Assembly: GCA_050255815.1 (NCBI GenBank)
Contig: JBLMVJ010000035.1
Location: forward strand, 10,727 to 74,726
Direction of reading: 5' to 3'
Source: Candidatus Levyibacteriota bacterium
GTDB lineage: Bacteria; Patescibacteriota; Microgenomatia; Levybacterales; GWA1-39-11
DNA: 64,000 bases
The notes beneath the pieces are model-generated. The model saw only the letters and a program-made list of their open reading frames with translations. It had not been told where the DNA came from and made no database searches. Position numbers and translations under genes: made by a program. Below are positions 10,041 to 63,682 of this stretch, one piece after another (the first letter of the stretch is position 1; every line of letters begins with the position of its first letter).

Positions 10041-10048
10041 GAGAACTC

Positions 10049-10333: not shown

Positions 10334-10344
10334 GAGGACAGCGA

Positions 10345-10557
10345 TTGAAGACTAGACCGCCGCCGAAGGCACTTTCCTTGGGAAGCCCCAAAAAGGCAAG
10401 CCCAAAAAGCAAGGTAGTATCCCGCAAACGCGTAAGCGTGTTCGGAACTTGCTTTCTAATGCAGAAATGCACGGGAAGAAATTCCTGGATCCTTACCGGC
10501 CCTAGTTCATCCGAATTCTGGCTTTGCAAGCCAACAGCTCATGGAGAGATGCCATGA
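10345..10557 (+). CDS. Possible small, highly basic protein (70 aa, TTG start) in the island
   Basis: AGGAGG at 10333-10338, 6 nt before the TTG. Low-complexity, K/R/S/P-rich product; may be non-coding. Confidence 0.2.
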   Translation: MKTRPPPKALSLGSPKKASPKSKVVSRKRVSVFGTCFLMQKCTGRNSWILTGPSSSEFWLCKPTAHGEMP

Positions 10558-11990: not shown

Positions 11991-12345
11991 CGCACGGCGA
12001 TCCCAGACTCCTCGGAGTTGCCGATGGAGAGTACCTTAACGTCACGAGCACCGCCTAACCGCTGTGATGATCGTGGTCCGCCTGGAAAAGGAGGTTGACG
12101 ATAACCCTCTGGGTTGTCAGGATCCTGAGCGCAAGCTTGAGGATCTCCTCCACTACGGCGGACAGACTGGACAGTTTATGTGTTTCACGCTCCTTTGAGT
12201 TTTGCATTCAAAGAAAGTCGTGTCACGGCAAAAACTGGTTCCAGTCAGGGTGAGAGACTCATTTATTGAGAATTGATTGGATTTTTTCCATCAAGTCTCT
12301 TTTGAGACTTTCTCCCACCTACATGCCTTTGCGTCTCCCTCACCA

Positions 12346-15049: not shown

Positions 15050-15194
15050 TTTTAATGAAAGCTGGGCAGTTTGACTTAGCCCTATAGTTTTTGATACAAT
15101 ACACATATGTTTCAGAGTGAACTGTTCCACTTAGATAGTGGAGCATCCCTTCGGGCAAGTTCTTCTGAACCAATTTTAGTTTAAAAATTAAAGT

Positions 15195-15956: not shown

Positions 15957-15961
15957 TATCC

Positions 15962-17170
15962 ATGAGAATTCTTTTAATCACCCCATATTTCTATCCCCAT
16001 AAAGGGGGAAGCCAGCAGTATGCGCTGGAGCTCTATAAAACCATCATGAAGCAGAATAAAGATATTCAAGTTGATGTCCTCACCTATAACACAGACCAGT
16101 CAAAAAGTGTGGAAGAATATGAAGGGTTTACCATCTACCGTGTGCCTTGTGTCCAACTCCTGAAGGGACAATTTGCTATTCCTCATTATTGGGAGCTGAG
16201 AAAAACACTGAATAAACTATTCAGGGAAAACCGCTATACGTTTGTGAATAGCCATACGCGGTTTTTTGAAAGTTCCTGGTGGGCGCCGTATGTTGCTTCA
16301 CATTTCCATACCAAATCTATCCTGACTGACCATTGCGCAGCACATCCCACCCATAAAACTAAACTGGTTACCGGCGTGTCATACGTAATAGATAAATTCA
16401 TAGCGCCCCTGTTTTTGCAAAAATATGACTATATTACCGTGACTAATAAAGCCACCCAGGATTTCTTAAGCTCACTTATTTCAAAAGAGTCAGAGGTTAT
16501 TTATGGCGGCGTAGATACAAAACTCTTTAAACCCAGGACAAACAGGAGCAAAGAAAGAAAAATTTTAGGGATCAAAAAAAGATTTTCAAAGAATGATGTG
16601 GTGGTAGCATTTGTAGGCCGCATGATCTATTCCAAGGGTCCGCAAATACTTTTGGAAGCAGCCAAAAAAATTACAAAAAAATACCCGCGGGCATACTTTA
16701 TTTTTGGAGGAAACGGTAGCCTGTACCCTGAGCTTTCTGCCTTCCAAAATGACCATATTTTCTTTACCGGAGAGCTCACAAAAGAAGAAATATCTGACCT
16801 GTTAGCCAAGTCCGATGTCCTGGTTCATCCTTCTTTACACCATGAAGGCTTTCCAAATGTTATTTTAGAAGCAGGAGCAGCAGGCTGTGCAGTTATTGCA
16901 ACAAATATGGGCGGAACGTATGAAATTATTACCCCCAGAACCGGGATCATGGTAAAACCAACAGTTTCAGCAGTAAGCTCAAAACTGGAGCTCCTAATAA
17001 AAAATGGCTTGCAAAGACGTAAATTGGGAAACAGCCTGCATAAATGGGTAGCTGATAATTACGACTGGAAAAGGATTGCGAAGGTATACCAAAAATCCAT
17101 GCAGGAAAAGATCCGGGAAAATACGTTACTGTTCCCAACCATGCGGATGCGCTCTATACCACGTCACTAA
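15962..17170 (+). CDS. Glycosyltransferase family 1 (GT4-like)
   Basis: C-terminal 'EGFPNVILEAGAAGCAVIATNMGG' sugar-nucleotide binding motif. Confidence 0.9.
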   Translation: MRILLITPYFYPHKGGSQQYALELYKTIMKQNKDIQVDVLTYNTDQSKSVEEYEGFTIYRVPCVQLLKGQFAIPHYWELRKTLNKLFRENRYTFVNSHTRFFESSWWAPYVASHFHTKSILTDHCAAHPTHKTKLVTGVSYVIDKFIAPLFLQKYDYITVTNKATQDFLSSLISKESEVIYGGVDTKLFKPRTNRSKERKILGIKKRFSKNDVVVAFVGRMIYSKGPQILLEAAKKITKKYPRAYFIFGGNGSLYPELSAFQNDHIFFTGELTKEEISDLLAKSDVLVHPSLHHEGFPNVILEAGAAGCAVIATNMGGTYEIITPRTGIMVKPTVSAVSSKLELLIKNGLQRRKLGNSLHKWVADNYDWKRIAKVYQKSMQEKIRENTLLFPTMRMRSIPRH

Positions 17171-18133
17171 CGAGTCAATACTCTGCTCCAGCGTATGTTC
17201 CGGGCTCCATTTTAAAAGCTCTTTTGCACGCGTTATATCTGCAACCATTTTGGCATATTCACCCTGGCGCGTTTGTGATTTTTCCAAAGGCAACTGAGCA
17301 CCTGTTTTTTGCTCTACAGCTTTTATAATTTCTAGAACCGAGTTTCCGGATTCTGTCCCTATGTTCATAATTTCACTATTGCCACCATTTAAAAGATACT
17401 CAAGAGCGAGAATATGGGCATTGTTTAGGTCTACTACGTTCACATAATCCCGGATAGGTGTCTTGTCCGGTGTGTCTACCTCAGGACAGGTCAGATAGAA
17501 CGGCTCTATCCCTAAAGCACCGCGTACGGCATTCTGCATGAGGTGTACAGAAGGTTTTTTGCTGTCACCTATCATTCCGTCATCTGTTGCCCCGCAGACG
17601 TTAAAATACCGCAAAATAACGTAATTTAGGCCCTTTAATTTTCCGTACCACTCAATCATTTTCTCTGTCATACGTTTTGACTCCCCATACGGATTACTGG
17701 GGTTGGTGGGATGTTTCTCATCTATGGGAACGTACTGGGCTTCCCCATACACGGCGCAGGTGGAGGAAAAAATAATGTTTTTAATGTTACGGGAAAGCAT
17801 GGCTGCCAGAAGGACCTGGGCGGACGTAGTGTTGTTCCCAAAATATTTCTCCGGGCTTTGCATAGATTCATTTACTGAGCAATTGGCTGCATAATGGATA
17901 ACTGCCTCTATGTCCGGATTTGAATCAAGCACGTGTTCTATGTCTTTTTTGATTTCACCTTCATAGATATTCAGGTTATCGCCAAATTTTTCTTGTAATG
18001 CCTGCATTGCACCATGGAATCCCGTGGAAAAGTTATCCAGGGCCACCACCTGGTAGCCTTTTTGGAGGAATAAGTAGGCGGCTACTGACCCTATATACCC
18101 TGCTGCACCGGTAATTAATATTTTCTTTGCCAT
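17126..18133 (-). CDS. galE: UDP-glucose 4-epimerase
   Basis: N-terminal Rossmann motif 'ILITGAAGYIGS', SDR catalytic YxxxK, and a length typical of GalE. Confidence 0.85.
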   Translation of the reverse strand: MAKKILITGAAGYIGSVAAYLFLQKGYQVVALDNFSTGFHGAMQALQEKFGDNLNIYEGEIKKDIEHVLDSNPDIEAVIHYAANCSVNESMQSPEKYFGNNTTSAQVLLAAMLSRNIKNIIFSSTCAVYGEAQYVPIDEKHPTNPSNPYGESKRMTEKMIEWYGKLKGLNYVILRYFNVCGATDDGMIGDSKKPSVHLMQNAVRGALGIEPFYLTCPEVDTPDKTPIRDYVNVVDLNNAHILALEYLLNGGNSEIMNIGTESGNSVLEIIKAVEQKTGAQLPLEKSQTRQGEYAKMVADITRAKELLKWSPEHTLEQSIDSLVTWYRAHPHGWEQ

Positions 18134-28093: not shown

Positions 28094-28894
28094 ATGTTGC
28101 GCAGTCTGAAATTATTTTTAGTAGAATGCCAGCTGGTGATTGAGGTAAAAAGCCTCTCCGTAGTGTGGTTTTTAGCCTCCATTTCAGGATCTATCCTTAT
28201 GATTATCTTCTGGACCGGTGTTACCAGCGCAAACGGCGGCTCCATTTCCGGCTGGAACACGGGAAGTTTTGCCACGTACTACCTCCTGGTTGCTCTGGCG
28301 GGGTCTCTCTTTATAGCCCATATAGAAGAAAATGTTTCCTTTCAAGATATCCAAAGAGGTGAGCTCTCTATGTATCTTTTGAAACCCTTCCCTTATTTTA
28401 GGTTTAAGCTGCTGATTGAGCTCCCCTGGCGCTTCATGCAAGGTGCTTTTGCCATTATAAGCATGATTTTAGTATTTCTGCTGGTTCCTCACCTGATCCA
28501 GATCACCCTTTCCCCGGTCCTGCTTCCTATGGCAATTTTATTAGTTTTCAGCGCCTTTTTATTGTCATTTACTTTCAAAATGTGCCTGGGGCTTCTGGCT
28601 TTCTGGTTTACAGAAATCAACTCACTCCTGCAGCTGACTGAAATTATTCTTACCCTCTGCGCAGGCTTCATAGTGCCATTGGTGTTCCTCCCAAATTATT
28701 TGCAAACCCTTTTTAATATCCTTCCGTTCTCTTACATGGTCTACTACCCTATCCTGGCACTTTTAGGAAAACTTAACCCAGACCAAGAAATACGAGTGTT
28801 TGGTATACAAATGTTGTGGACCTTTTTATTCTATCTACTCTATAAATTTCTCTGGAGGAAAGGAAGGCTGAAATTTACTGCCGTAGGACACTAA
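28094..28894 (+). CDS. ABC-2 family transporter permease, paralog 1
   Basis: Six TM helices. Shares the 'G.LS.YLLKP' motif with the next three genes. Confidence 0.7.
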   Translation: MLRSLKLFLVECQLVIEVKSLSVVWFLASISGSILMIIFWTGVTSANGGSISGWNTGSFATYYLLVALAGSLFIAHIEENVSFQDIQRGELSMYLLKPFPYFRFKLLIELPWRFMQGAFAIISMILVFLLVPHLIQITLSPVLLPMAILLVFSAFLLSFTFKMCLGLLAFWFTEINSLLQLTEIILTLCAGFIVPLVFLPNYLQTLFNILPFSYMVYYPILALLGKLNPDQEIRVFGIQMLWTFLFYLLYKFLWRKGRLKFTAVGH

Positions 28895-28895
28895 T

Positions 28896-29681
28896 ATGCA
28901 TTACCTAAAGATCTTAAAAGCGCTGATAGTCATTAACACCGCATACGCGTTAGAGTACAAGGCGCATTTTGTGGCCCAGGTTTTTGCAAGCCTGGCCTGG
29001 GGCGTATTTTCCGTGGTCAACATGATCCTTTTGACGTACCGCGTCCACTCTGCTTTTGGCTGGAGCAGGAATGAGCTCATCCTTCTTTCCGTTATGGTTA
29101 ATGTAGTCTATGGCATCCACCGTATGTTGTTTGATGTAAACTTCTGGAGATTCTCCCGGATTATCCATTATGGAGAAATGGACATGGTGCTGTTAAAGCC
29201 CGTGGACTCCCAGTTCCAAATGAGCATGTGGATCATAGATATTAGCGGTATCTTCAGATTTTTAGTTGCCCTAGCGCTCACCTTTATCCTGGTTTTTGCC
29301 ATGCACTTTCCTATTTCTCTGACAAGTGTGTTGATTGCCACTATTTTAAGCCTGGCCGGTGTGGTCCTTCTCTATGCTTTCACCTATATCTTCCTAACCC
29401 TCACCATCTGGTTCTCTAACCTCTCTAACCTGATGGGACTGGTGAATAATATCCTTTCTATGTCCCGGTATCCAAAAGAAATGTATGAAGGATTAGGCAC
29501 CTACTTTTTCTTTTTTCTCTTGCCTTTAATTGTTATAATAAGCACTCCTACAAAAGCTCTCATCCAAAAGGGGAACCTGTTAGATAGTCTGCTTTTAGTA
29601 CTCTTTACTATCCTATTTTTTGCAATCTCAAGGGTGTTCTGGAAATTCGCCCTGCGGTTCTATGTCAGTGCTTCAGGATAA
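28896..29681 (+). CDS. ABC-2 family transporter permease, paralog 2
   Basis: 'YGEMDMVLLKPVDSQF' motif. Polytopic. Confidence 0.7.
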   Translation: MHYLKILKALIVINTAYALEYKAHFVAQVFASLAWGVFSVVNMILLTYRVHSAFGWSRNELILLSVMVNVVYGIHRMLFDVNFWRFSRIIHYGEMDMVLLKPVDSQFQMSMWIIDISGIFRFLVALALTFILVFAMHFPISLTSVLIATILSLAGVVLLYAFTYIFLTLTIWFSNLSNLMGLVNNILSMSRYPKEMYEGLGTYFFFFLLPLIVIISTPTKALIQKGNLLDSLLLVLFTILFFAISRVFWKFALRFYVSASG

Positions 29682-29684
29682 ACA

Positions 29685-29758
29685 GGAAATTAATAGATAT
29701 TCATAGAAATTAAGAAATTGATTGTAATTACACAATTTAGTTTCCATGAATTTCGCGA
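29685..29758. repeat. 74-bp palindromic intergenic element, copy 1 (GGAAATTAATAGATATTCATAGAAATTAAGAAATTGATTGTAATTACACAATTTAGTTTCCATGAATTTCGCGA)
   Basis: About 95% identical to 48527-48599. Terminal inverted repeat GGAAATTAA...TTAATTTCC. Confidence 0.85.
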
Positions 29759-29792
29759 CCGTAGGGAGCTTATTTCCAAAAATTTCTTTCTT

Positions 29793-30587
29793 ATGTATAA
29801 ATATTTCCGTATCTTCACCAATGTCTGGGGCAAAGCCCTTTCTTACCGGGTCAACTTTATCATGTGGCGTGTCCGTGTGGTGCTCCAACTTCTAACGTTA
29901 TTCTTTTTGTGGTCTACTATTCTCACCAACAGGACTGCTATCTTTGGCTACTCTACTTCCCAAATGCTCACGTACATTTTAGGCACTTCGCTCATTTCTT
30001 CTGTAGTTTTGTCCAGCCGCACTTTTGAAGTAGGAGACCAGATAAATGACGGTACGCTTTCTAATTTTCTGATCAAACCCATGTCCTACATAAAATACTG
30101 GTTCTTTTATGACCTGGGGGATAAAGCCAGCAACATATTTTTCTCTATAATCGAATTAACGATAATCATCTTTCTGTTCCGTCCGCCCCTTTATGTCCAA
30201 ACCAATCCCACCTATCTCATGTTTACCCTGGTTTCCGCGTTTTTAGCATTACTTTTATACTTTTACTTTGGCTTTTTACTGGGGCTTTTAGGATTCTGGA
30301 GCAATGAAGTGTGGGGACCACGCTTTATTTTCTTTATCATCATTAACTTTTTTGCCGGCGCTATGTTCCCGCTGGATGCGCTGCCAAAACAAGTGGTAAG
30401 CGTTCTCCAGCTTTTCCCATTCCCGTACCTTCTATACTTTCCGCTGAAGATTTATTTAGGAAAGATTTCTTTCCCGTTGATTATTCAAGGGCTCTTCATC
30501 TGTTCCGTGTGGATGGTAGGATTGTATTTTATTTGTAAATTTATCTGGTTAAAAGGATTGAAATTGTATGGGGCGCAAGGGAGATGA
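29793..30587 (+). CDS. ABC-2 family transporter permease, paralog 3
   Basis: ORF 29718..30587. Start moved to the ATG at 29793 because the 5' part overlaps the repeat element. 'DGTLSNFLIKPMSY' motif. Confidence 0.65.
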   Translation: MYKYFRIFTNVWGKALSYRVNFIMWRVRVVLQLLTLFFLWSTILTNRTAIFGYSTSQMLTYILGTSLISSVVLSSRTFEVGDQINDGTLSNFLIKPMSYIKYWFFYDLGDKASNIFFSIIELTIIIFLFRPPLYVQTNPTYLMFTLVSAFLALLLYFYFGFLLGLLGFWSNEVWGPRFIFFIIINFFAGAMFPLDALPKQVVSVLQLFPFPYLLYFPLKIYLGKISFPLIIQGLFICSVWMVGLYFICKFIWLKGLKLYGAQGR

Positions 30588-30655
30588 GAATGTATCAAGT
30601 GTTAAGTAGCAAGTAGTATGTATTTTCTTGTGTCTCTTTGACTCTTTTGTAACCT

Positions 30656-31453
30656 TTGACTCTCATAATTATGTCTAAATATTTTAAAATCTGGTTCACT
30701 TCTATGCTGCACCAGGCGCAGACTGCGTTTGCGTCCCGCCTGGGGGTGGTAGTGTTTTTAGTGGGAAAGCTCTTGCGCTTCTACTTTTTCCTCCTCTTCC
30801 TCTTTTTAATAGTCCATCAAACAAAAAGCATAGCGGGATATTCTCTATGGGAAGTAATTTTTTTCTATGCAACGTTTAATTTAATAGATTCTTTTCCCCA
30901 AATGGTCCTCCGATCTGTCTATGGATTTAGGAATTATGTAGTGTCAGGATTTTTTGATTTTTATATGGTCCAACCAGTCTCCCCCCTATTTAGGTCACTT
31001 TTTGGCGGTTCTGATATTCTTGATATCCCAATGCTATTTTTATCTATTGGATATATTATTTATTCTTCATTTATGCTACCCCATTTTTCAATCACCGGCG
31101 TCTTTTTATACATCTTACTGATCTTAAATGCCTTTATTATCTCTTTAGCATTCCATATTCTGGTCTTATCTATTGGGGTTATAAGCACGGAGGTGGATAA
31201 TACGGTAATGCTCTACCGGGACCTGACACAAATGGGAAGGCTGCCTATAGATATTTATAAACAAGCAGTAAGTTTTATCCTGACGTTTGTAATTCCCGTG
31301 GGAGTTATGATCACGTTTCCCGTAAAAGCGCTTCTGGGCGCACTTTCTCTCCAATTCATAGGATACTCTGTGGTATTTTCCGTGGTATTTCTTACGCTCT
31401 CACTCTTTCTCTGGACAAAGTCATTGAAAAATTACACCAGTGCCAGCAGCTAA
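30656..31453 (+). CDS. ABC-2 family transporter permease, paralog 4
   Basis: 'SGFFDFYMVQPVSPLF' motif. Polytopic. Confidence 0.7.
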   Translation: MTLIIMSKYFKIWFTSMLHQAQTAFASRLGVVVFLVGKLLRFYFFLLFLFLIVHQTKSIAGYSLWEVIFFYATFNLIDSFPQMVLRSVYGFRNYVVSGFFDFYMVQPVSPLFRSLFGGSDILDIPMLFLSIGYIIYSSFMLPHFSITGVFLYILLILNAFIISLAFHILVLSIGVISTEVDNTVMLYRDLTQMGRLPIDIYKQAVSFILTFVIPVGVMITFPVKALLGALSLQFIGYSVVFSVVFLTLSLFLWTKSLKNYTSASS

Positions 31454-33460: not shown

Positions 33461-33615
33461 AAACCGATTTTGCTCCTCAGTCCTGGCCTTGACCTTAGGC
33501 GCGCAGTCCCAAAGGGGGACGAGCACCGCAAGTCAAGCAACTGGAATGGAAACAAAACAGTACAAATGTAGTAGATGATAAACCGGCTTTGCCCTTCAGT
33601 CCTGGCCTTGACCTA
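33461..33615. repeat. 35-bp imperfect direct repeats (AAACCGrtTTTGCyCyTCAGTCCTGGCCTTGACCT) at 33461-33495 and 33581-33615 flanking an 85-bp segment; the second copy is the 3' end of 5S rRNA
   Basis: Read directly. The enclosed segment begins TTAGGCGCGCAGT-hairpin-CGAGCACCGCAA, also seen at 44883-44922. Confidence 0.6.
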
Positions 33616-33719
33616 TCTTCCCATGTTGTGTAACAACAAAGTATTGTGAGCGCTGACGTGTTTCACTTCTCTGTTCGGAATGGGAAGAGGTGGGACCACA
33701 TCGCTCTAAAGACCAAGAC
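33599..33719 (-). rRNA. rrf: 5S ribosomal RNA
   Basis: Reverse complement contains GGTCCCACCTCTTCCCATTCCGAACAGAGAAGTGAAAC...CATGGGAAGATAGG. Helix I pairing GTCTTGGTC/GGCCAGGAC. Confidence 0.8.
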
Positions 33720-34000
33720 TCAAGAGCAAAACCGGTAAGATCCGAATCTACTCGAATAGTTTGGGGTAACTTCTAGGCTACCCCATTCTTCTCGAATATT
33801 TCGAATTAACATTAACAAACACTAGCGCATTCGAATTGATTCGATTTAAATTCGAACCATTCGAGAATGATTTCTTAGAATCCACGCTATTTGGATCGAC
33901 CTATTAGTACAACTTCGCTGAAACAGTTACCTGTCTTACACGTGTTGCCTATCAACCTGATGGTCTCTCAGGGGTCTAAAAGAGATCTTATCTTAGGGTG

Positions 34001-34033
<33 letters not shown>

Positions 34034-34268
34034 CATGGAAATCTAGCTACCCAGCAGTGCACTTGTAAGTACAACTGGCACACCAGGGATTTCCTCACCC
34101 CAGTCCTCTCGTACTAGGGGCGACTCCCTTCAAATCTCAAACGGTTGTCCTGGATAGAGTCCGAACTGTCTTACGACGTTCTTAACCCAGCTCGCGTACC
34201 TTTTTAACTGGCGAACAGCCAGACGCTTGGGAGCTTCTCCACCCCCGCGCTAAGATGAGCCGACATCG

Positions 34269-34699
34269 CTGTCAATCCAATCAGTAATTAAGAAAGACTT
34301 AAAAACTTAAAACTGATGGTGATACTCTTGTTACCAAGAGCCTCTGACTATACCTTCATCCGCCAACTGGCGGAGCTAGTCGTATGATACAGATTATAAA
34401 TTTCTCTTTATGAGATGAATCCATATCTCACCCTCTCACCTATGCTGGTGAGGGGTTCAGTCGATAGGGTCCAAAAGAAATTTAAAATTCAGAAGTTAAA
34501 ATTCAGAATTAAATTCTTAATTCTGAAATCTGAATTCTTAACTCTATTTGAACCTCGGTATTACCCTCTTGTGTTCAGAAAGTAGGGTTTCACCGATTTG
34601 GACTAGTTATTTAAATTATTAGTACCTTGTTTTTTGACTCAAATACTAATAAATACAGGCAAGAGTATTACTACTCAGGCGCCCCGATATTTTCATATA
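34269..34699 (-). other. Putative group I intron (~431 nt, no ORF) in 23S domain V at the GGCACCU|CGAUGUCGGCUC junction (E. coli ~2500 region)
   Basis: Exon sequences that are contiguous in E. coli are separated here. The 5' exon ends in U and the insertion ends in G. Confidence 0.6.
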
Positions 34700-34742
34700 A
34701 GGTGCCAAACCGCATCGTCGCTGTGGACGCTTGGATGCGATC

Positions 34743-34775
<33 letters not shown>

Positions 34776-35229
34776 AAGCTACGTCCCAACCACTAAGGAA
34801 CGCAGGATCACTAACACCTGCTTTCGCACCTGCTCGACTTGTAGGTCTCGCAGTCAAGCTGGCTTGTGCGTTTGCACAATACGCTCCGATTTCCGTCCGG
34901 AGTTAGCCAACCTTTGTACGCCTCCGTTGCACTTTAGGAGGCAACCTCCCCAGTTAAACTGCCCACCAGACACTGTCTTTTAGCCGTATTTTTATGCGGC
35001 ATTAAAGTAATGCTCACTCATCTTAAAGAGAGGTATTTCATTGATGACCGAAGTCTCCCTCCTATACTAAACAGTTAAAATAAGCTTGCAAATGTCAAGC
35101 TACAGTAAAGCTCCCGGGGTCTTTTTGTCCTAGGACAACCAGGCCGCGTCTTCACAGCCATCTCAATTTCGCCGTGTAAATGTTCAAGACAGTTACTCAG
35201 TCGTTCTACCTTTCGTGCGGGTCGGAACT

Positions 35230-35548
35230 CCATTGTTTTAATGTTCCAACATGGAACCTCACAGTCGCCTGTGAGATCGGACTATATCTTTCCCTTACCA
35301 AATTGGTGAGGGATCTAGCGTCTAGTCTCTGAGGGTTTTCCGATAAATCGGAATCTTCCCTGCTGATTGGCTCCACCAAGCAGATTTTTACTCTTACGAG
35401 TACTGTTGGATACTGAGCTGTTCCAGCAAATAGCTAGATTTTACACTCATTTAGGTTAACGATTGTGTTCTTACGTGACTGTTTTGCTTGTTCCTGATGT
35501 GTATCCCGATTAGATCGGGACTCGGGCAAGTTGATTTGACCCAAACCA
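35230..35548 (-). other. Putative group I intron (~319 nt, no ORF) in 23S at GUCGGGU|AGUUCCGACC (E. coli ~1951 site)
   Basis: Exons flanking the insertion are contiguous in E. coli. The 5' exon ends in U and the insertion ends in G. Confidence 0.6.
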
Positions 35549-37359
35549 ACCCGACAAGGAACTTCGCTACCATAGAACAGTTATAGTTACTGCTGCCGTT
35601 CACCGGAGCTTTAGAAAGCGGCTCCACCTTGCGGTTTCACCACCCACTATTGACTTACCGGCACTGGGCAGGTGTCAGCCCCTATACGTTACCTTTCGGT
35701 TTTGCAGGGACCTGTGTTTTAGATAAACAGTCGCTAAGTAATCTTTTGCTTAACCTGGATGTTACTCCAGGCAGGGCATCTCCCATAGGTTACGCCCAGC
35801 TTTTGTTGCCGAGTTCCTTGAACATTTGTCTCACGGTCGCCTTAGTCTACTCGACCAATCCACCTGTGTCGGTTATGCGGTACGGCAAAATATAGCACTC
35901 CTCACGAATCTTTTCCTGAAGACTGAAACTTACGATCCTCACCCTACTTTCTTGCGATTTCAGATTTGCATTCGCCACTTAATTAAACACTTTGACGGAT
36001 TTGCCCATCAAAACTATCTTATGGCTTGGACCCTGTTTACAGGGCGATCCTTTCCACTCTTGTCCATCCTTGAGTAATAACGCACTATACTCTGTAGCAG
36101 AATATTAACTGCTTGTCCATCCGGCTACCCCGCGCTTTATGACGGGCCACCGTTAGGAGCCGACTAACGCTGCGCTGACTTACATTGCGCAGCAAACCTT
36201 GGATTTTCGGCGGACGCCGTTCTCAGGCGTCATTCGCTACTCATGCCGGCATTCTCACTTGTAAACGCTCCACCATACCTTACAGTACAGCTTCGCTGCA
36301 TTTACGACGCTCCCCTACCACTTGCTCCGATAAATCGGAGTCAAATCTCCATCGTCGGTATTAAGCTTAATCCTCGATCATTTCCGGCGCCATTCTCCAA
36401 TGTCGACTAGTGAGCTGTTACGCTTTCTTTAAAGGATGGCTGCTTCTGAGCCAACCTCCTAGCTGTCTATGGAAAATGACTTCCTTATCAACTTAGCTTA
36501 AATTTAGAGACCTTAGATGGGAGTCTGGGCTGTTTCCCTTTAGACCCACGAGCTTAGCCCCGCAAGTCTGACTCTCTATTAAGTTTTTACGGTATTCGGA
36601 GTTTGATTGATCCTGAAAAGTTGCCTCTCCAGAGACCATTCAGTGCTCTACCCCCGTAAAAACATACAAAAGGCTATACCAAAATATATTTCGGGGAGAA
36701 CCAGCTATCTCCAGGTTCGTTTAGTATGTCACCCCTTACCACAAGTCGTCTCAGATCATTGCTGCGATCACGAGTTCGGGCCTTCCTCATCCTTTCGAAC
36801 AAGTTCACCCTGCTCATGGTAAGCTCACCTGGTTTCGGGTCTTTTGCAATGCGCATTTAGGTATCCCAGTTAGAGATCGCTTTCACTATGCCTCCCCCCT
36901 CACCTTTCCAACGAAAATTCCAACCTTTGTTTTAAATCGAGCTTGTTTCGATAATATTTCAAAGTGGTAATCCTCATTAGAATGGTGAGGGGTTAGACTG
37001 CGCAATACAAAAACTCACCGGCTCATTCTTCAATAGGCACGACGTTATACCCTTGCGGGCACTTCGTCTGCTTGTTAGCTAATAGTTTCAGTAACTCTTT
37101 CATTCCCCTCCCGGGGTGCTTTTCACCTTTCCCTCGCGGTACTAGTTCACTATCGGTAGATGTTGATATTTAGCTTTGGAGCGTGGTCGCCCCGGCTTCC
37201 CACAGGGTTTAATCGTACCCCATGGTACTCAGGAACAGGCAAGAAGTGAAAATCATTTCAAATACGGGACTATCACCCTCTTTGGTCTCTTTTTCCAAAA
37301 CGTTCTTCTATGATTTCCATTTGTGACTTCTTTTGCATTTAAGCAAGCCGTCCTACAAC

Positions 37360-37660
37360 CCCCCTCACCTTTTTATCACTAACCTTTTTAAAAGTTCTTG
37401 CCAAGCTTTTGCGCGCTTCTTAAGCGCCTGCTCTCTTCTAAAAGCTAATTTATAAGAAGTATATGCTTCATAATAAATAAGCTCCCATGGCAAAAACTTT
37501 TTAGTATATATAGACTTTCCTTTATTATGGTCCGTAAATCGAGTTTTAAGATCTTTTGTTGAACCAATATAAAACTGGTCGAACTTTACACTCTTAAGAA
37601 TATACGTGTAGAACATAAGTCTATTATAGTTATTTAAGTTAGGAACAAAAAGGTGAGGGG
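37360..37660 (-). mobile_element. Hairpin-bounded intervening sequence in 23S domain I carrying a GIY-YIG nuclease ORF; ~15-bp terminal inverted repeats CCCCCTCACCTTTTT / AAAAAGGTGAGGGG
   Basis: Replaces the variable region after AGCGAACG (E. coli ~270-350). Flanking rRNA blocks identified on both sides. Confidence 0.6.
37365..37616 (-). CDS. Small GIY-YIG nuclease superfamily protein (COG2827-like, 83 aa) encoded inside the 23S rRNA gene
   Basis: 'YTYILKS...FYIGSTKDLKTRFTDHNKGK...PWELIYYEAY...RREQALKK' matches the small URI-domain endonuclease family. Same strand as the rRNA. Confidence 0.75.
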   Translation of the reverse strand: MFYTYILKSVKFDQFYIGSTKDLKTRFTDHNKGKSIYTKKFLPWELIYYEAYTSYKLAFRREQALKKRAKAWQELLKRLVIKR

Positions 37661-38222
37661 TTTGAGCTGTTCCGCGTTCGCTCGCCGCTACTGACGGAAT
37701 CTCTGTGATTTCTTTTCCTCGGACTACTTAGATGTTTCAGTTGGTCCGGTATCCCGCCGACTACTAATATATTAATCTTGCGACTAATAACTTCATAGCA
37801 GGCTCCCAGTTAAACTGGGGGGTTTCCCCATTCGGACACCACCGGATCATAATGTCTTCGGCCATTCCCCGGTGATTTTCGCGAGCCAGATGCGTCCTTC
37901 TTCGGTCAACACCTCCTAGGCATCCACTATTAGCATGAATCAAATAGCGTAGATTCTAAAAAACCAATTCATTAAAAACCATGCCTCGGCTTGAAACATG
38001 GAAAATCCGCCACCCGGCGGATTTTTTTAATCCTCCGTCCCGATTAGATCGGGACTTCGGCCTAGTTGTTTGTTTGTAATTCTTCCAATTATTAATGAGC
38101 AAAACGCTTTTTGCGTTGCCCTCGGATGTAATCCGAGGCCATATCTCTCCTGTACTCGTTTCTCGCCGGGAAGTATATTGCCCTTCCACCAGCGAGGAAC
38201 CAATACAAGAAAACTAAAAAAG

Positions 38223-38295
38223 TGGACCCAAGGAGATTTGAACTCCTGACCTCGTCATTGCAAATGACGCGCTCTACCAGCTAAGCTATGGGCCC
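38223..38295 (-). tRNA. tRNA-Ala (anticodon TGC)
   Basis: Reverse complement reads GGGCCCATAGCTTAGCTGGTAGAGCGCGTCATTTGCAATGACGAGGTCAGGAGTTCAAATCTCCTTGGGTCCA. Anticodon loop TTTGCAA. No encoded CCA. Confidence 0.9.
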
Positions 38296-43305: not shown

Positions 43306-44736
43306 ATGAGTGTCCCAGAGAGATTATTATTATTAGGGGAGGGTTGCTTTATGAAAGTAAGTTCTGCCCGAGAGGACATATTTATTGTTTTTTTGTCCTT
43401 CTGGAGCACAATTTTATTAACGCGTTATCTAACGTTTGAATTTATTAAGGTGTTCCACCAGTATCCTGTCCTGTACCTTTCAGGTGTGCCTATCCATCAC
43501 TTTTTAGTTGGCCTCATTCTAGTTTCTTTTGTCCTGGTAGTACGCATATTCAGGAATAGTTTTTCCCTGATTAATTTGATTCTCTTAGGCATGGGGTTGG
43601 GCTTTATTACTGATGAATTCTGGCTCATAACCACCGGGGATTTCACTACAAATAATATCTACTGGGCAGGGGAAAATCTCACGGCTATCGTTGTTTTGGG
43701 CCTCCTCTCTTTTTTGTTTGTGAAGTTTCTGGAAAGGCGGTCCAGTATGAAGCTGGATAAAGGAAACCGTCCGCTGCATGTAAACCCAAAAAATCCGCTG
43801 GTCTCCGTGGTTATCCCCGCTTTAAATGAAGAGAAGTTCCTGGAAAATAACCTATATAGCATCATCCAGCAAAAATTTAAGGATTTTGAGCTGATTGTAG
43901 TAGACAACAATTCTACTGACAGGACTGCTGAAATAGCCCGGTCTTTTGGTGCAAAAGTCATTTTCAACGCAGTAAAAGGCGTGGGCGCAGCGCGCCAGGC
44001 CGGATTCATGGCGGCAAAAGGCAAAATTATAGCTACCACAGACGCTGACAATATTTTACCCAGGGATTGGTTGGAAACCATAGTGAAACGGTTTGAAAAA
44101 GACCCTGAACTGGTAGCTTTTGGGGGCCTTTTCCGCCTCTACTCCGGACCGCTTTCAGCACGTATTGCCGTAAAGTACCTTTCCTATCATATGTTCAAGC
44201 TGGATAAGCTGTTTGCGCATAACTGGAGTTTAATTGCCCAGAACATGGCGGTGAAGAAAAGCGCATTCCTGAAAGTAGGTGGCTTTAAGCATGTCCAAAT
44301 GGGAGAAGACGCGGACCTGGCACAACGGCTGGGCAATATTGGAAAGGTTGAACTGGACCCCAACTTTTTAGTATATGCATCCGGAAGGCGCGTGCGGCAC
44401 GGCCTGTGGTATGGCATCTGGTCTTATGGCCCCAATGCGTTTAGCCGAATGTTTTTTAAAAAGCATAAATTTGACCGCCTACCCACGGTGAGGAAAGAAA
44501 AATCTATCATCAACAACTTCTCTTTTATTCCGCTTTTAGCTTCAGTTATTTACCTTATTATCCTGTTTACCTCTATGAATGCGTCTTTAAACCATGCAAA
44601 ACAGGATTTGTTGCATAAAACGTCTATCAGCATCTCTAAGATGAAGCTTAAAAAGATTGCGTCAGAACTGGGCCCAACCCTCCCCTGGAGTGAACTGATT
44701 AAGAAAACTCGCGACCTCCACTTCCTGGAGAATTAG
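43306..44736 (+). CDS. Membrane-anchored glycosyltransferase family 2
   Basis: N-terminal ~150-aa TM region, then 'VSVVIPALNEE', 'IVVDNNSTDRT', 'TDADN'. A C-terminal TM follows. An alternative start is the ATG at 43351. Confidence 0.85.
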   Translation: MSVPERLLLLGEGCFMKVSSAREDIFIVFLSFWSTILLTRYLTFEFIKVFHQYPVLYLSGVPIHHFLVGLILVSFVLVVRIFRNSFSLINLILLGMGLGFITDEFWLITTGDFTTNNIYWAGENLTAIVVLGLLSFLFVKFLERRSSMKLDKGNRPLHVNPKNPLVSVVIPALNEEKFLENNLYSIIQQKFKDFELIVVDNNSTDRTAEIARSFGAKVIFNAVKGVGAARQAGFMAAKGKIIATTDADNILPRDWLETIVKRFEKDPELVAFGGLFRLYSGPLSARIAVKYLSYHMFKLDKLFAHNWSLIAQNMAVKKSAFLKVGGFKHVQMGEDADLAQRLGNIGKVELDPNFLVYASGRRVRHGLWYGIWSYGPNAFSRMFFKKHKFDRLPTVRKEKSIINNFSFIPLLASVIYLIILFTSMNASLNHAKQDLLHKTSISISKMKLKKIASELGPTLPWSELIKKTRDLHFLEN

Positions 44737-59591: not shown

Positions 59592-60194
59592 ATGTTTATG
59601 GCCACCCTCCCAACTAACTACCAAAAACATATGTCCGCTGACCCATCCCGCAAATTCTTCCTGCGCCGTTTTAACAAGACATTGGTTAAAAACATAAAAA
59701 ACCTGAATGTTTCCTCTATTCTAGACGCGGGGTGCGGGGAAGGATTTACCCTTAACCAGCTATATGAGGCAAAAGCGGCAAAACACCTGGAAGGGGTGGA
59801 TTTTTCAAAACAGGCAGTAAGCCTGGGAAATAAACAGTTTCCCAAGCTGAAACTAAAACAGGGTGACATTTACAAACTACCCTACAAAAAAGATGAATTT
59901 GAGCTGGTTATATGTTCTGAGGTTTTAGAGCATTTGGAACACCCGGAAAAGGCTGTTAGAGAAGTACTTCGCGTTTCCAAAAAGTATGTGCTCTTCAGCG
60001 TACCCAATGAGCCCTTTTTTATGGGATCCAGACTTTTAAAAGGCATGAATATCAAACAGCTGGGCAACCACCCGGAACACATTAACCATTGGAACGTTTT
60101 TTCCTTCCCGCAAATGCTACAGAAAAACGGGGTAAAAGTGAAAAAAGTCCTCTACCCATTCCCGTGGATTTTAGTATTAGGGAAAAAAGAATAA
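59592..60194 (+). CDS. Class I SAM-dependent methyltransferase
   Basis: Motif I 'ILDAGCGEGF' and motif II 'FELVICSEVLEHL'. Confidence 0.8.
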   Translation: MFMATLPTNYQKHMSADPSRKFFLRRFNKTLVKNIKNLNVSSILDAGCGEGFTLNQLYEAKAAKHLEGVDFSKQAVSLGNKQFPKLKLKQGDIYKLPYKKDEFELVICSEVLEHLEHPEKAVREVLRVSKKYVLFSVPNEPFFMGSRLLKGMNIKQLGNHPEHINHWNVFSFPQMLQKNGVKVKKVLYPFPWILVLGKKE

Positions 60195-60197
60195 CTT

Positions 60198-61142
60198 CTA
60201 TTCTTCAGAGGAATATTTGAGACGGCCCAGAAATTTCTCCCCATTCTCCTGGCGGTCATTTAAGTGGACCAGAAGGTCTGCAAGAAAACCGGTGAAAAAT
60301 GCCTGGATACCGGACAGGACCAACATCACCCCTAAGAATAATAACGGACGAGTCCCTATAGTCTCTCCTGCAAAATGGAGAAATGACAAATATCCAAGCA
60401 CAAGTATACCCAAAAGAAATAGGATCTCTCCAACTATTCCAAAGAAATGCAAGGGCCGTTCTTTGTATCTGCTTAAAAAGATCATGGTTAACATATCCGG
60501 CATGTCTTTCCAGAGTTTTGAAAACCCGTACTTGGAAACGCCAAATTTCCGCTTAGCATGTTCTACCGGCACTTCCATGACGGTAAATCCATGCTGATAC
60601 GCCAAAAGGGGGATAAACCGGTGGAATCCTCCATACAGCTTTAAGGACTTTGCTGCCTGCGCGGTATATCCTTTTAAACCGCAGTTATAATCATGCAGTT
60701 TTAGTCCCCAAAAACGGTTTGCCAAAGAATTAAAGAACTTGGAAGATAATTTTTTCTTGAAAGAATCCTGCCTGTTTTTCCTCCATCCGCACACTACCTC
60801 TGCCCCGTTTGGGTCTTCCAGTGCGTCCAATATTTTTTTTATCTCAGACGGCTTATCCTGTAAATCTGCGTCTAACGTAACAATATATTCACCTTTTGCC
60901 TGGGAAAACCCTACGCTCAGCGCCTCAGATTTCCCCACATTTTTGCGGAAAGAAAAGATCTTCACATCCTTATCCTTTTTATGGAAAGCTTTCAGTAAAC
61001 GGAGGGTTGCATCTGTGGACCCGTCATCAATGAACAAAATCTCATAAGGCTTTTTTAGCTTGGATAGCTCTTTTACCAGCACTTCATAGAACGCTTCCAG
61101 AGACTCCTCTTCATTGTAAACCGGAACTACAATACTAATCAT
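60198..61142 (-). CDS. Glycosyltransferase family 2, GtrB-like polyprenyl-phosphate sugar synthase with C-terminal TM helices
   Basis: 'MISIVVPVYNEE', 'IDDGSTD', 'LDADLQD', then two C-terminal TM helices as in GtrB/ArnC. Confidence 0.9.
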   Translation of the reverse strand: MISIVVPVYNEEESLEAFYEVLVKELSKLKKPYEILFIDDGSTDATLRLLKAFHKKDKDVKIFSFRKNVGKSEALSVGFSQAKGEYIVTLDADLQDKPSEIKKILDALEDPNGAEVVCGWRKNRQDSFKKKLSSKFFNSLANRFWGLKLHDYNCGLKGYTAQAAKSLKLYGGFHRFIPLLAYQHGFTVMEVPVEHAKRKFGVSKYGFSKLWKDMPDMLTMIFLSRYKERPLHFFGIVGEILFLLGILVLGYLSFLHFAGETIGTRPLLFLGVMLVLSGIQAFFTGFLADLLVHLNDRQENGEKFLGRLKYSSEE

Positions 61143-61267
61143 TTTGGATATTATAGCATCTTCCAGGATGGAAGATGATATATCGAAAGATTCATTAGTT
61201 ATAAATCTCCCAAAGGGATATGGTATATGAGGGTTCTTTTTAGTTATACCAAAACTGAGGCTAATTA

Positions 61268-63682
61268 CTAAATTTTAGAGAATGCTATGAAGTCTCCGGT
61301 CTCATATAAAATTTTGTAGGAAGGGTTTTTTCTGAGGTTTTCAACCATTTGTTTCTGCGCAGGAAGAGACGGCTGTGCATAGGTATCATTAAGAAGAAAA
61401 ACAATTACATCAGCCTCATCTAATCCATTGGGAATGGTGTAAATCTTCTCCCTCTGGGATAGATGAGAACCAACATTATTACTGGCTGCTACACTATATT
61501 TTTCATCTATGGTCATAAGAAACTGTGAAATTTCCTTACGGTTTGAAAGCTGCCTGGTAAACATATCTATGTTAGGATGCAGGCTTCCCGGAAGAGGCCC
61601 TAAAACATATGCGGAGAACAGGGAGGATCCCAGCAGGACTGCTATTAAAACAGTGTCATTTAAAAGCCTTATCCTTTTTTGTGCAATCTTTATTCCATAC
61701 ACTGCTGAAGTAAAGATAAACGGGGTGATAGTTGCCGTGTACTGGTAATAAATTTCATGCAGCTGCCCGTTATTGCTTAAGACATTAATAGCTAAATCAG
61801 GAATGGCAAAGATAAGTGACGGGATTGCAAAGAGCGGTAAAAAAGCAACCGGAGACATAATCTCAAGAATATAATTAATCCGTGCGGGGGATGCTAACAA
61901 CTGGACCCATTTCTGGGGGGCAATAAACAGGGACAGGAAAATTTCCCCGGGAGAAGACCCCAAATGGGAAAAGTAAGAAAGTGCAAAATGGACATCTCCT
62001 CTTTGTCCCGGTATCACATGGGAAACCAAAACGTAAAACATGCCTAAAGAGATAAAAAAGGTAAGAATACCCGTTACTGCAACGCCTAGCCGGGTTATGT
62101 GCAGGCTTTTCTTCTTCCACTCTATGCCATCCATGGCAAGGCGTATCCCTAAAAACGCTGCAACAATCCACACTTCTTCTTTCGTCAATGCTGACAATAC
62201 GATAAACAGGAAAAACAAAAACCTCTTTTTTTTCAAAAGAAAATAATAAGCGGCCAGCAAAAATCCGGTGGCTAAAACAACCGGATGGAAATCATATAAA
62301 ACTGAGTACGAAAGGCCGGGATTTAAAAGATAGGCGCAGGAAACTGCAAGGGCAAGAAGCGGTTTTTTTAAAACGGATTTTGCAATAAGAAAGATAAAAA
62401 CAGCGCCCATTGCAACGGTAAATGCCTGTAAAAAGATAAGGACCCGGGGGTCAGACCAAAAAGCATACAGCGGCGCAAAAAAGACCAGGATCACATCAGC
62501 GTGAAAGGCAAGACGGGAAATAACCTTAGTCCCATTAGGGTCAGTAAATTGGAAAACGTTCCCGTGCAAGGTATTCCATACCGTCTGGTCCATATTTCCC
62601 AGGTCAAATCTGCCGGTAAAAAAATTGTCATAACGCAAAAATCCTGCAATGGTGTAATACAGGGTAAATAAGGAAACCATAACCCCCAGGAAAAGTTCTG
62701 TACCATACTCTTGCACCATGAATATAACCCTTTGGATAGTTTTGCTTCTATACCAAAGCACTACAAAACATACAAAAAGAACTTCCCCTGCAACTTGTAA
62801 GATGCGTGCTAAAATAGATGCAAAAACTGCCACTCCCACACCCAAAAACGGGGCCAGTCCTACAGACATCATCCCTTCCCTCACACCCAAACCCATAGGG
62901 GTTAAAATAGTAATATATCCAAAAAAGAGGCTGAATATAAAAAATGAGATAAATGCCAGGAGCATAAAAGGGGTCAAAAACGTCACGGATAAAACAGCAA
63001 AAAATGTCCCCAAACCAAATAGGGAAAGGTAACAGATGGTAAGAAACAGCAACTGAAGTGTCTGCACAGCGGTAAAACCGGGCAGCAAAGGCCGTAAGCG
63101 CTTTGCAAACGGAGCGGGTACCTTAGTCAAAAACCAGGAATGAAATAAGAAAATGCTTCCCATTAAAACTCCTCCTGCCTCTAAAAGGAACATGAGAATT
63201 GAAGAAAGTGGATTGTTGTAGAACACGTATTGGTTAAGAAGCGGCAAGGCAGGTATGCTAGCCAGAACACACCCGGCAGCAAAAAATTCAGCTTCTATAA
63301 GCAGGAGGTGGAAGATTTCTTTCTTTTTTGCCCCATGTGCAGAAAGCAGTATTCCCTTGCCTAAAAAAGACCAAAAGTTGCCCGGAATATAACGCTTCAA
63401 TTCTGAAATTGACCATATATATGTTGCGCGCTCACGGGGAATTGTAATATTTTTATTGCACAGCAGGATGTACCAGATGATGCTTCTAATTAAAAAGTAG
63501 AAAAAGTAACATGCTACGGAAAAGAATAAAAATGAAAAAGAAACGTGGGAAAAAACCCGGGAGAAAGAAATGTTTTGCTTTGATAAGGTGTACAGGAGAA
63601 AGACAAAAGCAAGTGCGGCCAGCGGCCAGCTGAACAGAAATTTCAGCGTGTTGTAATACCGTGAGAACGGTGATAATTTCAT
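61268..63682 (-). CDS. Large membrane protein: N-terminal UPF0104/MprF-like flippase-type TM domain fused to a DUF2079-like (GT-C-like) polytopic domain
   Basis: 'ILTPMGLGVREGMMSVGLAPFLG' motif of the LPG-synthase TM/flippase family in the first ~320 aa, then >12 further TM helices and a C-terminal soluble domain. Domain calls are from motif recall only. Confidence 0.75.
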   Translation of the reverse strand: MKLSPFSRYYNTLKFLFSWPLAALAFVFLLYTLSKQNISFSRVFSHVSFSFLFFSVACYFFYFLIRSIIWYILLCNKNITIPRERATYIWSISELKRYIPGNFWSFLGKGILLSAHGAKKKEIFHLLLIEAEFFAAGCVLASIPALPLLNQYVFYNNPLSSILMFLLEAGGVLMGSIFLFHSWFLTKVPAPFAKRLRPLLPGFTAVQTLQLLFLTICYLSLFGLGTFFAVLSVTFLTPFMLLAFISFFIFSLFFGYITILTPMGLGVREGMMSVGLAPFLGVGVAVFASILARILQVAGEVLFVCFVVLWYRSKTIQRVIFMVQEYGTELFLGVMVSLFTLYYTIAGFLRYDNFFTGRFDLGNMDQTVWNTLHGNVFQFTDPNGTKVISRLAFHADVILVFFAPLYAFWSDPRVLIFLQAFTVAMGAVFIFLIAKSVLKKPLLALAVSCAYLLNPGLSYSVLYDFHPVVLATGFLLAAYYFLLKKKRFLFFLFIVLSALTKEEVWIVAAFLGIRLAMDGIEWKKKSLHITRLGVAVTGILTFFISLGMFYVLVSHVIPGQRGDVHFALSYFSHLGSSPGEIFLSLFIAPQKWVQLLASPARINYILEIMSPVAFLPLFAIPSLIFAIPDLAINVLSNNGQLHEIYYQYTATITPFIFTSAVYGIKIAQKRIRLLNDTVLIAVLLGSSLFSAYVLGPLPGSLHPNIDMFTRQLSNRKEISQFLMTIDEKYSVAASNNVGSHLSQREKIYTIPNGLDEADVIVFLLNDTYAQPSLPAQKQMVENLRKNPSYKILYETGDFIAFSKI

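Follow-up and report, generated by a model that had tools for sequence, protein, structure and literature searches.

The question raised by this locus is whether one membrane protein could both bring a lipid-linked sugar to the outer face of the membrane and transfer it there. The sequence studied is a 64-kb window (the whole stretch of DNA analysed) from Candidatus Levyibacteriota, a lineage of the candidate phyla radiation (CPR, Patescibacteria), and the locus lies at positions 59592-63682. Three open reading frames (ORFs) are present there, in agreement with the original prediction, an earlier reading of this DNA made from its letters, and their products were classified with Pfam.

59592-60194, plus strand: S-adenosylmethionine (SAM) methyltransferase, 200 amino acids (aa)
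60198-61142, minus strand: family 2 glycosyltransferase (GT2), 314 aa, PF00535
61268-63682, minus strand: UPF0104-DUF2079 fusion, a two-module membrane protein of 804 aa

On the minus strand the fusion gene comes first and is followed, after a gap of 125 nucleotides (nt), by the GT2 gene. On balance, the 804-aa protein is probably a flip-and-transfer enzyme made as one polypeptide, acting in a pathway of extracytoplasmic glycosylation that has three components.

Pfam searches recovered both of the similarities on which the original prediction had relied, an N-terminal MprF/UPF0104-type domain and a DUF2079 remainder. PF03706 (LPG_synthase_TM, UPF0104) covers residues 23-297 and profile positions 9-295 of 302, scoring 40.3 bits against a gathering cutoff of 33.4 (E 3.5e-10), and the PMGLGVREG motif falls within it at residues 262-270. 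PF09852 (DUF2079) covers residues 350-795 and profile positions 1-454 of 459, with 227.7 bits and an E value of 3.9e-67. No NCBIfam model matches the 804-aa protein, and the full sequence has zero matches at E<=10 among all Protein Data Bank (PDB) chains. The AlphaFold2 model (mean predicted local distance difference test score, pLDDT, 90.4; predicted template modelling score, pTM, 0.86) agrees in fold with both domain assignments, and the pTM indicates a defined predicted packing between the UPF0104 and DUF2079 modules. Hydropathy, charge bias and the model give the same topology: the N-terminus is inside, eight helices follow and return the chain to the inside, and the first transmembrane (TM) helix of a GT-C glycosyltransferase module then puts a conserved DLG loop outside.

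The N-terminal part and its two hairpin tips are located as follows.

62708-63682, minus strand: N-module, residues 1-325, a lipid flippase or scramblase fold of the type of MprF transmembrane domain 1 (TMD1; UPF0104 / PplT / PF03706)
63371-63403, minus strand: first hairpin tip ELKRYIPGNFW, residues 94-104; R97, P100, G101 and W104 are invariant in 70/70 family members
62873-62899, minus strand: second hairpin tip PMGLGVREG, residues 262-270; P262, G264, G266, R268 and E269 are invariant in 70/70 family members

In the model, helices occupy residues 5-35, 49-76, 120-153, 160-187, 205-231 and 282-312, and hairpins are formed by residues 83-98/102-114 and 238-257/267-280. The predicted fold is thus that of MprF TMD1, with eight helices and re-entrant hairpins at TM3 and TM7, as in PaMprF TMD1, which has eight helices with re-entrant TM3 and TM7 (PMC11980842). 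Further residues invariant in the family are R66, E130 and R293. The sole PDB match of the N-module profile is PaMprF at a marginal E value of about 9, and this match served for residue mapping and not as proof. In this weak alignment PMGLGVRE pairs with PGGVGVFE, placing E269 opposite E295 and R293 opposite R319. Both E269 and R293 are invariant in 70/70 family members, and E295-R319 of PaMprF is a conserved TM7-TM8 salt bridge (PMC11980842), so that the Glu-Arg pair of MprF TMD1 would have its counterpart in E269/R293, as far as an alignment at E ~9 can be read. MprF TMD2 and the synthase domain are absent from the 804-aa protein.

The second module and the domain that follows it were delimited in the same way.

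61589-62707, minus strand: DUF2079 GT-C transmembrane module, residues 326-698
62573-62614, minus strand: first extracytoplasmic loop, GRFDLGNMDQTVWN, residues 357-370; D360, L361, G362 and Q366 are invariant family-wide
62285-62293, minus strand: outer-loop motif D464-F465-H466, the second family-wide invariant motif
61271-61588, minus strand: C-terminal soluble alpha/beta domain, residues 699-804, predicted to be extracytoplasmic; R744 is invariant family-wide

A short linker helix (residues 314-325) runs into GT-C TM1 (residues 327-352), the N-terminus and linker being predicted inside and the next loop outside. The module has the predicted GT-C membrane fold, and its assignment as a GT-C rests on fold because sequence and profile searches of the PDB gave no true GT-C match; the module profile found only a spurious chromodomain there. 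Immediately after helix 327-352, in GRFDLGNMDQ, D360 provides the conserved acidic residue in the first outer loop that is characteristic of GT-C enzymes, and by analogy with them it is a candidate catalytic Asp. An alignment of the fused CPR forms with unfused Streptomyces DUF2079 proteins (about 21% identity) leaves D360, L361, G362, Q366, H394, D464-F-H466, Y648 and R744 invariant. K501 and E502 are also invariant in this CPR/Streptomyces alignment, and K501 is replaced by Gln in the more distant protein P0506. This pattern is what would be expected of an outward-facing GT-C active site, suggesting that these positions include the catalytic ones.

In relatives, the C-terminus is lengthened by ricin-type lectin domains (Streptomyces, P0316) or by a serine hydrolase, which is consistent with an extracytoplasmic location of the C-terminal domain. 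About one sixth of the family carries the latter as a third, C-terminal alpha/beta serine-hydrolase domain with a GHSMGG elbow, predicted to lie outside and closest to structures of the S9 peptidase/esterase type. Its bearers mostly cluster together (L004, L015, L016, L018, L021, L022, L024, L025, L027, L029, L044, L046, L077 and L085; P0070, at 1114 aa, is an example of such a protein). In L129, L135 and L149 one gene encodes the PplT part and a second gene the DUF2079-hydrolase part. The DUF2079 family as a whole comprises 5,084 representative clusters at E<=1e-10.

The third component is the GT2, for which the original prediction of a GtrB-like enzyme with a C-terminal TM pair held up well. 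The protein consists of PF00535 and two C-terminal hydrophobic helices (residues ~229-260 and 261-292), and it aligns over its full length, including these helices, with ArnC (9hwj, E 9e-44) and with GtrB sll0501 (5ekp, E 3e-31), as would a synthase of the GtrB type. Its catalytic part also aligns with the Pyrococcus dolichyl-phosphate mannose (Dol-P-Man) synthase DPMS (E 1e-15), and its sequence includes a DXD motif, D91-A-D93. NCBIfam scores are 172 bits for ArnC, 139 for PgfS and 94 for AglJ, all under the equivalog cutoffs. The GT2 is therefore placed with the polyprenyl-phosphate-sugar synthases (ArnC/GtrB/DPMS) by homology, which also points to a lipid-linked sugar as its likely product. 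Identity as an ArnC ortholog was considered and rejected, as NF007986 gives 172.4 bits where its cutoff is 529; the protein is a relative of ArnC and no more.

A two-domain ORF of this kind could arise by chance or from faulty gene calling. Neither is the case here, because hundreds of genomes encode the same two-domain protein, at 38-59% identity. The fusion and the GT2 are each 100% identical to proteins of a Candidatus Levyibacteriota metagenome-assembled genome (MAG) at NCBI, where the fusion is annotated merely as a 'DUF2079 domain-containing protein' and the GT2 as a 'glycosyltransferase family 2 protein'. The UPF0104-DUF2079 architecture is visible in precomputed annotations, and no published description of it was found.

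Conservation of the fused form was followed in three ways. A protein search with the fusion gave 864 matches, the best 120 of which cover at least 89% of the query, and a search of representative sequences gave 757 clusters at E<=1e-30. A genome scan, with one genome per species, yielded at least 580 relatives, and among the best 80 retained for inspection all 80 are fused genes of the Levyibacteriota type. When metagenomes were scanned with an unfused relative as the seed, 64 distinct loci of more varied composition emerged. Thirty-four of these 64 are fused, and in 5/64 (L118, L129, L135, L149 and L169) the protein is split at the exact module boundary into adjacent genes, usually with a 4-nt overlap. 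One further locus (L097) has a stand-alone PF03706 gene (71 bits) in the same operon, 18/64 are without a UPF0104 module in the available flank, and the class of the remaining 6/64 was not determined. Whether the fusion is kept or split in relatives, a point raised with the original prediction, is thus answered in favour of conservation: the fused form holds throughout the best genome loci, and the metagenome set adds split forms and forms lacking the N-terminal module. PF03706 was found in none of 120 Streptomycetaceae DUF2079 proteins. P0498, at first sight a stand-alone 285-aa N-module, was rejected as a fragment of a fused protein.

The usual neighbours of fused genes are an ATP-cone/Mrr_cat gene (71/84 loci), DinB, a polysaccharide deacetylase and a MacB-type ABC system. 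The ATP-cone + Mrr_cat (restriction-endonuclease-like) gene encodes about 270 aa and follows on the same strand after about 39 nt (e.g. L002 8415-9224; L001-L088). It is also found downstream of the unfused DUF2079 gene of L140, and in the window's clade the GT2 takes that position. In L133/L134 a second, divergent stand-alone DUF2079 gene (15017-16447, 476 aa, profile score 143) is located about 5.6 kb downstream of the fused one on the same contig, which shows that a single genome can encode paralogous DUF2079 enzymes.

The link between DUF2079 and synthase-type GT2 genes extends beyond the arrangement in the window. The order fusion, GT2, convergent methyltransferase occurs only in the window and in L006, L007 (same contig as L010) and L009, which are relatives at 56-59% identity and in which fusion and GT2 genes overlap by 4 nt. 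This clade shares an entire syntenic block that includes the methyltransferase, a 180-aa protein, MsrA and a HAD hydrolase, and adjacency of the window type, taken alone, is weak evidence. Abutting or overlapping GT2 and DUF2079 genes are, in all, found in four orders: fusion then GT2 in the window, L006, L007 and L009, and, in the metagenome set, GT2 then fusion (L143, L146/148, L171/172/174), unfused DUF2079 then GT2 (L097-L100) and GT2 then unfused DUF2079 (L109). All of the synthase-type GT2 genes detected within about 8 kb in the metagenome set directly adjoin DUF2079; by a rough estimate that assumes random placement in a span of about 16 genes, the chance of five independent lineages all being adjacent is about (1/8)^5. 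Covalent GT2-DUF2079 fusions occur in two other lineages, represented by P0506 and by the Streptomyces proteins P0261 and P0266. The GT2 part of P0506 matches Pyrococcus DPMS at E 9e-33, and its Joint Genome Institute (JGI) name is 'dolichol-phosphate mannosyltransferase'; the best PDB matches of the GT2 parts of P0261 and P0266 are ArnC, DPMS and GtrB. In L097, UPF0104, DUF2079 and GT2 are separate genes of one operon. All three pairwise fusions thus exist, namely GT2-UPF0104 (archaeal AglD), UPF0104-DUF2079 (here) and GT2-DUF2079 (P0506, Streptomyces). Three Streptomyces plasmid contexts of unfused DUF2079 genes contain no GT2 or UPF0104 neighbour.

In L097 (915-7358) and L099 (7884-11335) the unfused DUF2079-GT2 operon is flanked by an Acyl_transf_3 gene (glycan O-acyltransferase of the OafA/Oac type), and both loci resemble a compact envelope-glycan modification island.

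The pathway favoured here would proceed in three steps. At the cytoplasmic face, the ArnC/GtrB-type GT2 would load a sugar from a nucleotide sugar onto polyprenyl phosphate, as its homologs suggest. The UPF0104 module may then lower the barrier to moving the lipid-linked sugar to the outer leaflet, where it would arrive beside the fused enzyme; this is the weakest step of the scheme, and a scramblase-type fold may also help to return the spent polyprenyl phosphate. Finally, the DUF2079 GT-C would transfer the sugar to an acceptor on the outside, presumably by means of D360, Q366, H394 and D464/H466. The acceptor is most likely a cell-envelope glycan, and the small C-terminal outside domain would be expected to assist. 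The recurrent adjacency and fusion of GT2 and DUF2079 lend indirect support to a donor linked to polyprenyl phosphate. PaMprF is a promiscuous phospholipid scramblase whose substrate has been proposed to be set by the fused enzyme (PMC11980842), and a promiscuous scramblase of that kind fits a UPF0104 module that supplies a flipped donor to the GT-C fused to it. The ricin-lectin extensions of the Streptomyces relatives likewise fit an outside, glycan-facing C-terminus.

Several observations weigh against this scheme. With respect to linkage, the order fusion then GT2 is seen in only 4/84 de-duplicated loci of relatives, all in the window's own clade; no synthase-type GT2 was detected within 8 kb in the ~78 other genome loci, and most fused genes have none nearby (~78/84 genome loci, 31/34 metagenome loci). 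In other genomes the neighbours of GT2 orthologs are different glycan genes, an AftD-like GT-C or an EamA/DMT transporter, and the last of these could itself be the flippase. L097 also carries an MFS transporter and a DedA/VTT protein, two alternatives for the transport of lipids. With respect to the N-module, 18/64 distinct metagenomic DUF2079 relatives are without it in their flank, and L140 (where 9417-10223 is the downstream ATP-cone/Mrr gene) has an unfused DUF2079 gene in the same syntenic slot as fused genes; the module is therefore dispensable or supplied in trans. The proline hinge of MprF TM8 (P326) is apparently missing, the position being E300 and Glu in 69/70 family members, a tentative reading of a weak alignment. 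Scrambling by PaMprF may require the groove between TMD1 and TMD2, and TMD2 is missing here. The demonstrated substrates of UPF0104/MprF domains are glycerophospholipids, and transport of a polyprenyl-linked sugar has been demonstrated for none of them (PMC11980842). For DUF2079 itself, phmmer and profile searches of all PDB sequences gave no sequence-level link to any solved GT-C, the family has no characterised member, and a literature search turned up no description of DUF2079/PF09852. In another reading DUF2079 would not be a glycosyltransferase at all; it could be a non-catalytic subunit of GT-C fold like PIG-U, or another polytopic enzyme such as a polymerase, ligase or phosphotransferase. 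That is very improbable.

A different role for the N-module is conceivable on the acceptor or product side. DUF2079 might glycosylate a membrane lipid (a phospholipid, glycolipid or lipid-anchored polymer), with the flippase-like module moving that lipid to the outer leaflet or redistributing the product, as MprF does with lysyl-phosphatidylglycerol. The experimentally grounded UPF0104 cases all involve diacyl lipids that the partner enzyme makes or modifies, namely MprF and GpgF (PMC12713373), for which flipping of glucosaminyl-phosphatidylglycerol (GlcN-PG) has been proposed (PMC12713373). GT-Cs acting on lipids exist, such as ArnT on lipid A and PimE on phosphatidylinositol mannosides, and both are structural neighbours; in L109 a membrane methyltransferase of the PEMT/ICMT type adjoins DUF2079. 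However, a GT-C would still need a flipped polyprenyl-phosphate-sugar donor, and the GT2 linkage and fusions favour the donor side. The ricin-lectin extensions and the adjoining Acyl_transf_3 genes suggest a glycan acceptor, and nothing in these data points to a lipid one. We regard an acceptor-side role as unlikely.

It has also been considered that the UPF0104 module is a general phospholipid scramblase, or a mere scaffold or oligomerisation module, without channelling between the two halves of the protein, and that GT2 adjacency in the window merely reflects local synteny. The PplT gene is present as one copy in most prokaryotes, and a general role in membrane homeostasis has been proposed for it (bioRxiv 10.1101/2022.03.11.483950); the 64-kb window contains no second PF03706 gene. 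Orthologs without the module exist (L140), adjacency within the window's clade is not independent evidence since the whole syntenic block is shared, and promoter and terminator scans around the locus were uninformative, giving signals no better than those of shuffled sequence. Against this, the two modules stay linked across deep divergence, whether by fusion, by shared membership of an operon or as genes split at the exact boundary with 4-nt overlaps; adjacency to GT2 was gained in four or more gene orders, quite apart from the covalent fusions; and the predicted packing between modules (pTM 0.86) is defined. A general scramblase or scaffold is judged unlikely, and donor delivery to the fused GT-C is the reading that we prefer.

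A broader form of the preferred reading would make UPF0104/PplT proteins dedicated polyprenyl-phosphate-sugar flippases or scramblases of a large, unrecognised three-component class, DUF2079 a new GT-C family at the level of CAZy, and the fusion a minimal one-polypeptide machine for donor delivery, transfer and possibly return of the carrier. This is advanced tentatively, as quite possible and somewhat short of probable. If it is true, the three pairwise fusions would be a Rosetta-stone proof of the dedicated-flippase class.

The significance of the locus lies in the flipping step. Direct evidence on what flips polyprenyl-phosphate sugars to GT-Cs is missing even for GtrA, SMR-family and MATE proteins (PMC11127046). 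A candidate flippase whose fold has an established in-vitro scramblase assay, fused to the GT-C that would consume its product, offers a one-protein system for this step. UPF0104 domains fused to enzymes are already known, and a role as glycosylation flippases was predicted for archaea in 2015; a preprint on PplT lists 148 UPF0104 architectures, including GT-A, GT-B and O-antigen ligase domains (bioRxiv 10.1101/2022.03.11.483950). The fusion is thus not surprising in principle, and its value is as a tractable handle on an unproven step. The finding also gives DUF2079, a large family for which no literature was found, a concrete, testable function, and it suggests that glycosylation of the envelope is a conserved activity in Levyibacteriota, a group with surfaces that have hardly been studied. 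Should the N-module prove not to be a flippase, there remains a gain in annotation, with DUF2079 as a GT-C enzyme that partners a polyprenyl-phosphate-sugar synthase.

Orthologs of the GT2, at 60-67% identity, are widespread in Patescibacteria, and their contexts bear on how closely the GT2 and the methyltransferase are tied to the fusion. In L094 a GT2 ortholog lies beside an AftD-like GT-C, and the same assembly has the fusion on another contig (L022). In L095 and L096 the ortholog precedes an EamA/DMT transporter (ArnE/F superfamily) and keeps the convergent methyltransferase.

L095 1082-10563 and L096 8175-9050: out-group GT2 loci with EamA/DMT downstream of the GT2 ortholog

The L095 ortholog follows an Arn-like cassette (FdtA-like protein, C-methyltransferase, epimerase/dehydratase, formyltransferase and DegT aminotransferase), a hint that in some lineages the sugar carried by the lipid may be an N-formylated amino sugar. 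The proposal that the GT2 is dedicated to the fusion was rejected, as its orthologs belong to other glycan clusters, one of them adjoining an AftD-like GT-C in a genome that has the fusion elsewhere.

The methyltransferase is a soluble class I SAM enzyme (Pfam Methyltransf_11/23/31). It had been placed immediately upstream in the original prediction, and its coordinates are indeed lower; however, it is on the opposite strand and convergent with the GT2, with 3 nt between their 3' ends, and is therefore transcriptionally downstream of the GT2 and not upstream of it in an operon. In L092, L095 and L096, where there is no fusion, methyltransferase orthologs (52-54% identity) converge on a GT2 ortholog or lie close to one, and GT2 identity is 64-67% in a conserved pair of GT2 and ~199-aa methyltransferase across Patescibacteria. 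The methyltransferase travels with the GT2 and not with the fusion, and a part for it in the fusion system was rejected. Neighbours of the fusion and GT2, besides the methyltransferase, are a 180-aa protein with two TM helices, MsrA and a HAD hydrolase. No GtrA gene was found at the locus, the 180-aa neighbour having no GtrA Pfam match, and there are no phage genes and no serotype-conversion or O-antigen context there.

Other features of the window were recorded. A second glycan cluster at 13208-18133 encodes a 613-aa polytopic protein (no Pfam match), a GT2 (15195-15956), a family 4 glycosyltransferase (GT4, 15962-17170) and an epimerase/dehydratase (17126-18133, minus strand), and another GT2-domain protein is located at 43306-44736. 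Tandem paralogs at 1235-3373 and 3376-5523 (plus strand; 712 and 715 aa, 47% identical) have about 10 TM helices each, with TPR repeats at the C-terminus; both may be additional envelope enzymes of the polytopic kind, and lipid-linked sugars could be substrates for them too. Four tandem genes for ABC-2 family membrane proteins (PF06182) at 28094-31453 (plus strand) account for a strong negative AT skew in this segment. At about 10000-12000, a segment of ~60% GC, compared with ~43% for the genome, could be a foreign insertion or a non-coding feature; an ORF at 10524-11990 (plus strand, 488 aa) is Pro/Ala/Gly-rich and of low complexity, with PAPVPGPGP repeats and no Pfam match. The 23S rRNA gene (33883-37949, minus strand) is 4,067 nt long against a model of 2,925 nt and contains a group I intron; a 5S rRNA and a tRNA are adjacent, the other coordinates recorded in this rRNA region being 35258-35526, 33600-33717 and 38223-38295. 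No 16S rRNA gene was found anywhere in the 64-kb window.

Among known systems, the logic of the locus is that of the Gtr-type modules (GtrA/GtrB/GtrC), of CsbB/GtcA/YfhO and of the Citrobacter GT136 system with its MATE flippase (PMC11127046), in which a synthase, a flippase and an outside GT-C act in sequence, and the GT2 of the window is a full-length GtrB homolog. The Acyl_transf_3 genes beside L097 and L099 also recall Gtr/Oac glycan-modification modules. The differences are that GtrA, SMR and MATE proteins are absent, the candidate flippase being the UPF0104 module fused to the GT-C, that the GT-C belongs to another family (DUF2079), and that prophage and O-antigen context is lacking. Gtr-type genes form one conserved cluster that is typically carried by a prophage or linked to O-antigen, whereas operon linkage is variable here (4/84 loci, with GT2 elsewhere in other genomes). 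Identity as a Gtr/prophage serotype-conversion system was rejected for want of GtrA and phage genes. The fused-partner reading given in the original prediction thus stands as to domains, GT2 type and the links of DUF2079 to GT2 and UPF0104, and its Gtr identity is retained as an analogy only. From the Arn pathway (ArnC, ArnE/F, ArnT) the window differs in having no Arn-like sugar genes and no EamA gene, and in the ArnC score of its GT2 (172 against 529 bits); the organism has no lipid A context.

With MprF, UPF0104/PplT and E. coli YbhN the N-module shares the TMD1 type, and its similarity in sequence to the solved MprFs is marginal (E ~9). The partner in MprF is a cytoplasmic aminoacyl-phosphatidylglycerol synthase, whereas here it is a polytopic GT-C that would act outside; TMD2 (TM9-14) and the synthase domain are present there and absent here, and the TM8 proline hinge is apparently Glu (E300) here. 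The GT2-DUF2079 fusions contain the same DUF2079 module (34% identity for P0506), with full-length PF09852 matches at E <1e-70 in P0506, P0261 and P0266, and a synthase domain 29% identical to the window GT2. In these the fused partner is the synthase and not a flippase-like module, and none of the three has a PF03706 domain.

The closest parallel in composition is archaeal. AglD is a GT2-UPF0104 fusion, and UPF0104 proteins are found with AglD-like GT2 and PMT/STT3-like GT-C proteins in conserved neighbourhoods (PMC5898192). AglD and the arCOG00899/arCOG00897/arCOG00563 neighbourhood comprise the same three parts as the locus described here, a GT2 of the Dol-P-sugar-synthase type, UPF0104 and a GT-C, and the prediction for both is that UPF0104 acts as the flippase in glycosylation. 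The archaeal GT-C belongs to the PMT/STT3 type, whereas that of the window is DUF2079 and is found in a bacterium of the CPR; and the flippase-like domain is joined to the synthase in AglD, but to the transferase here.

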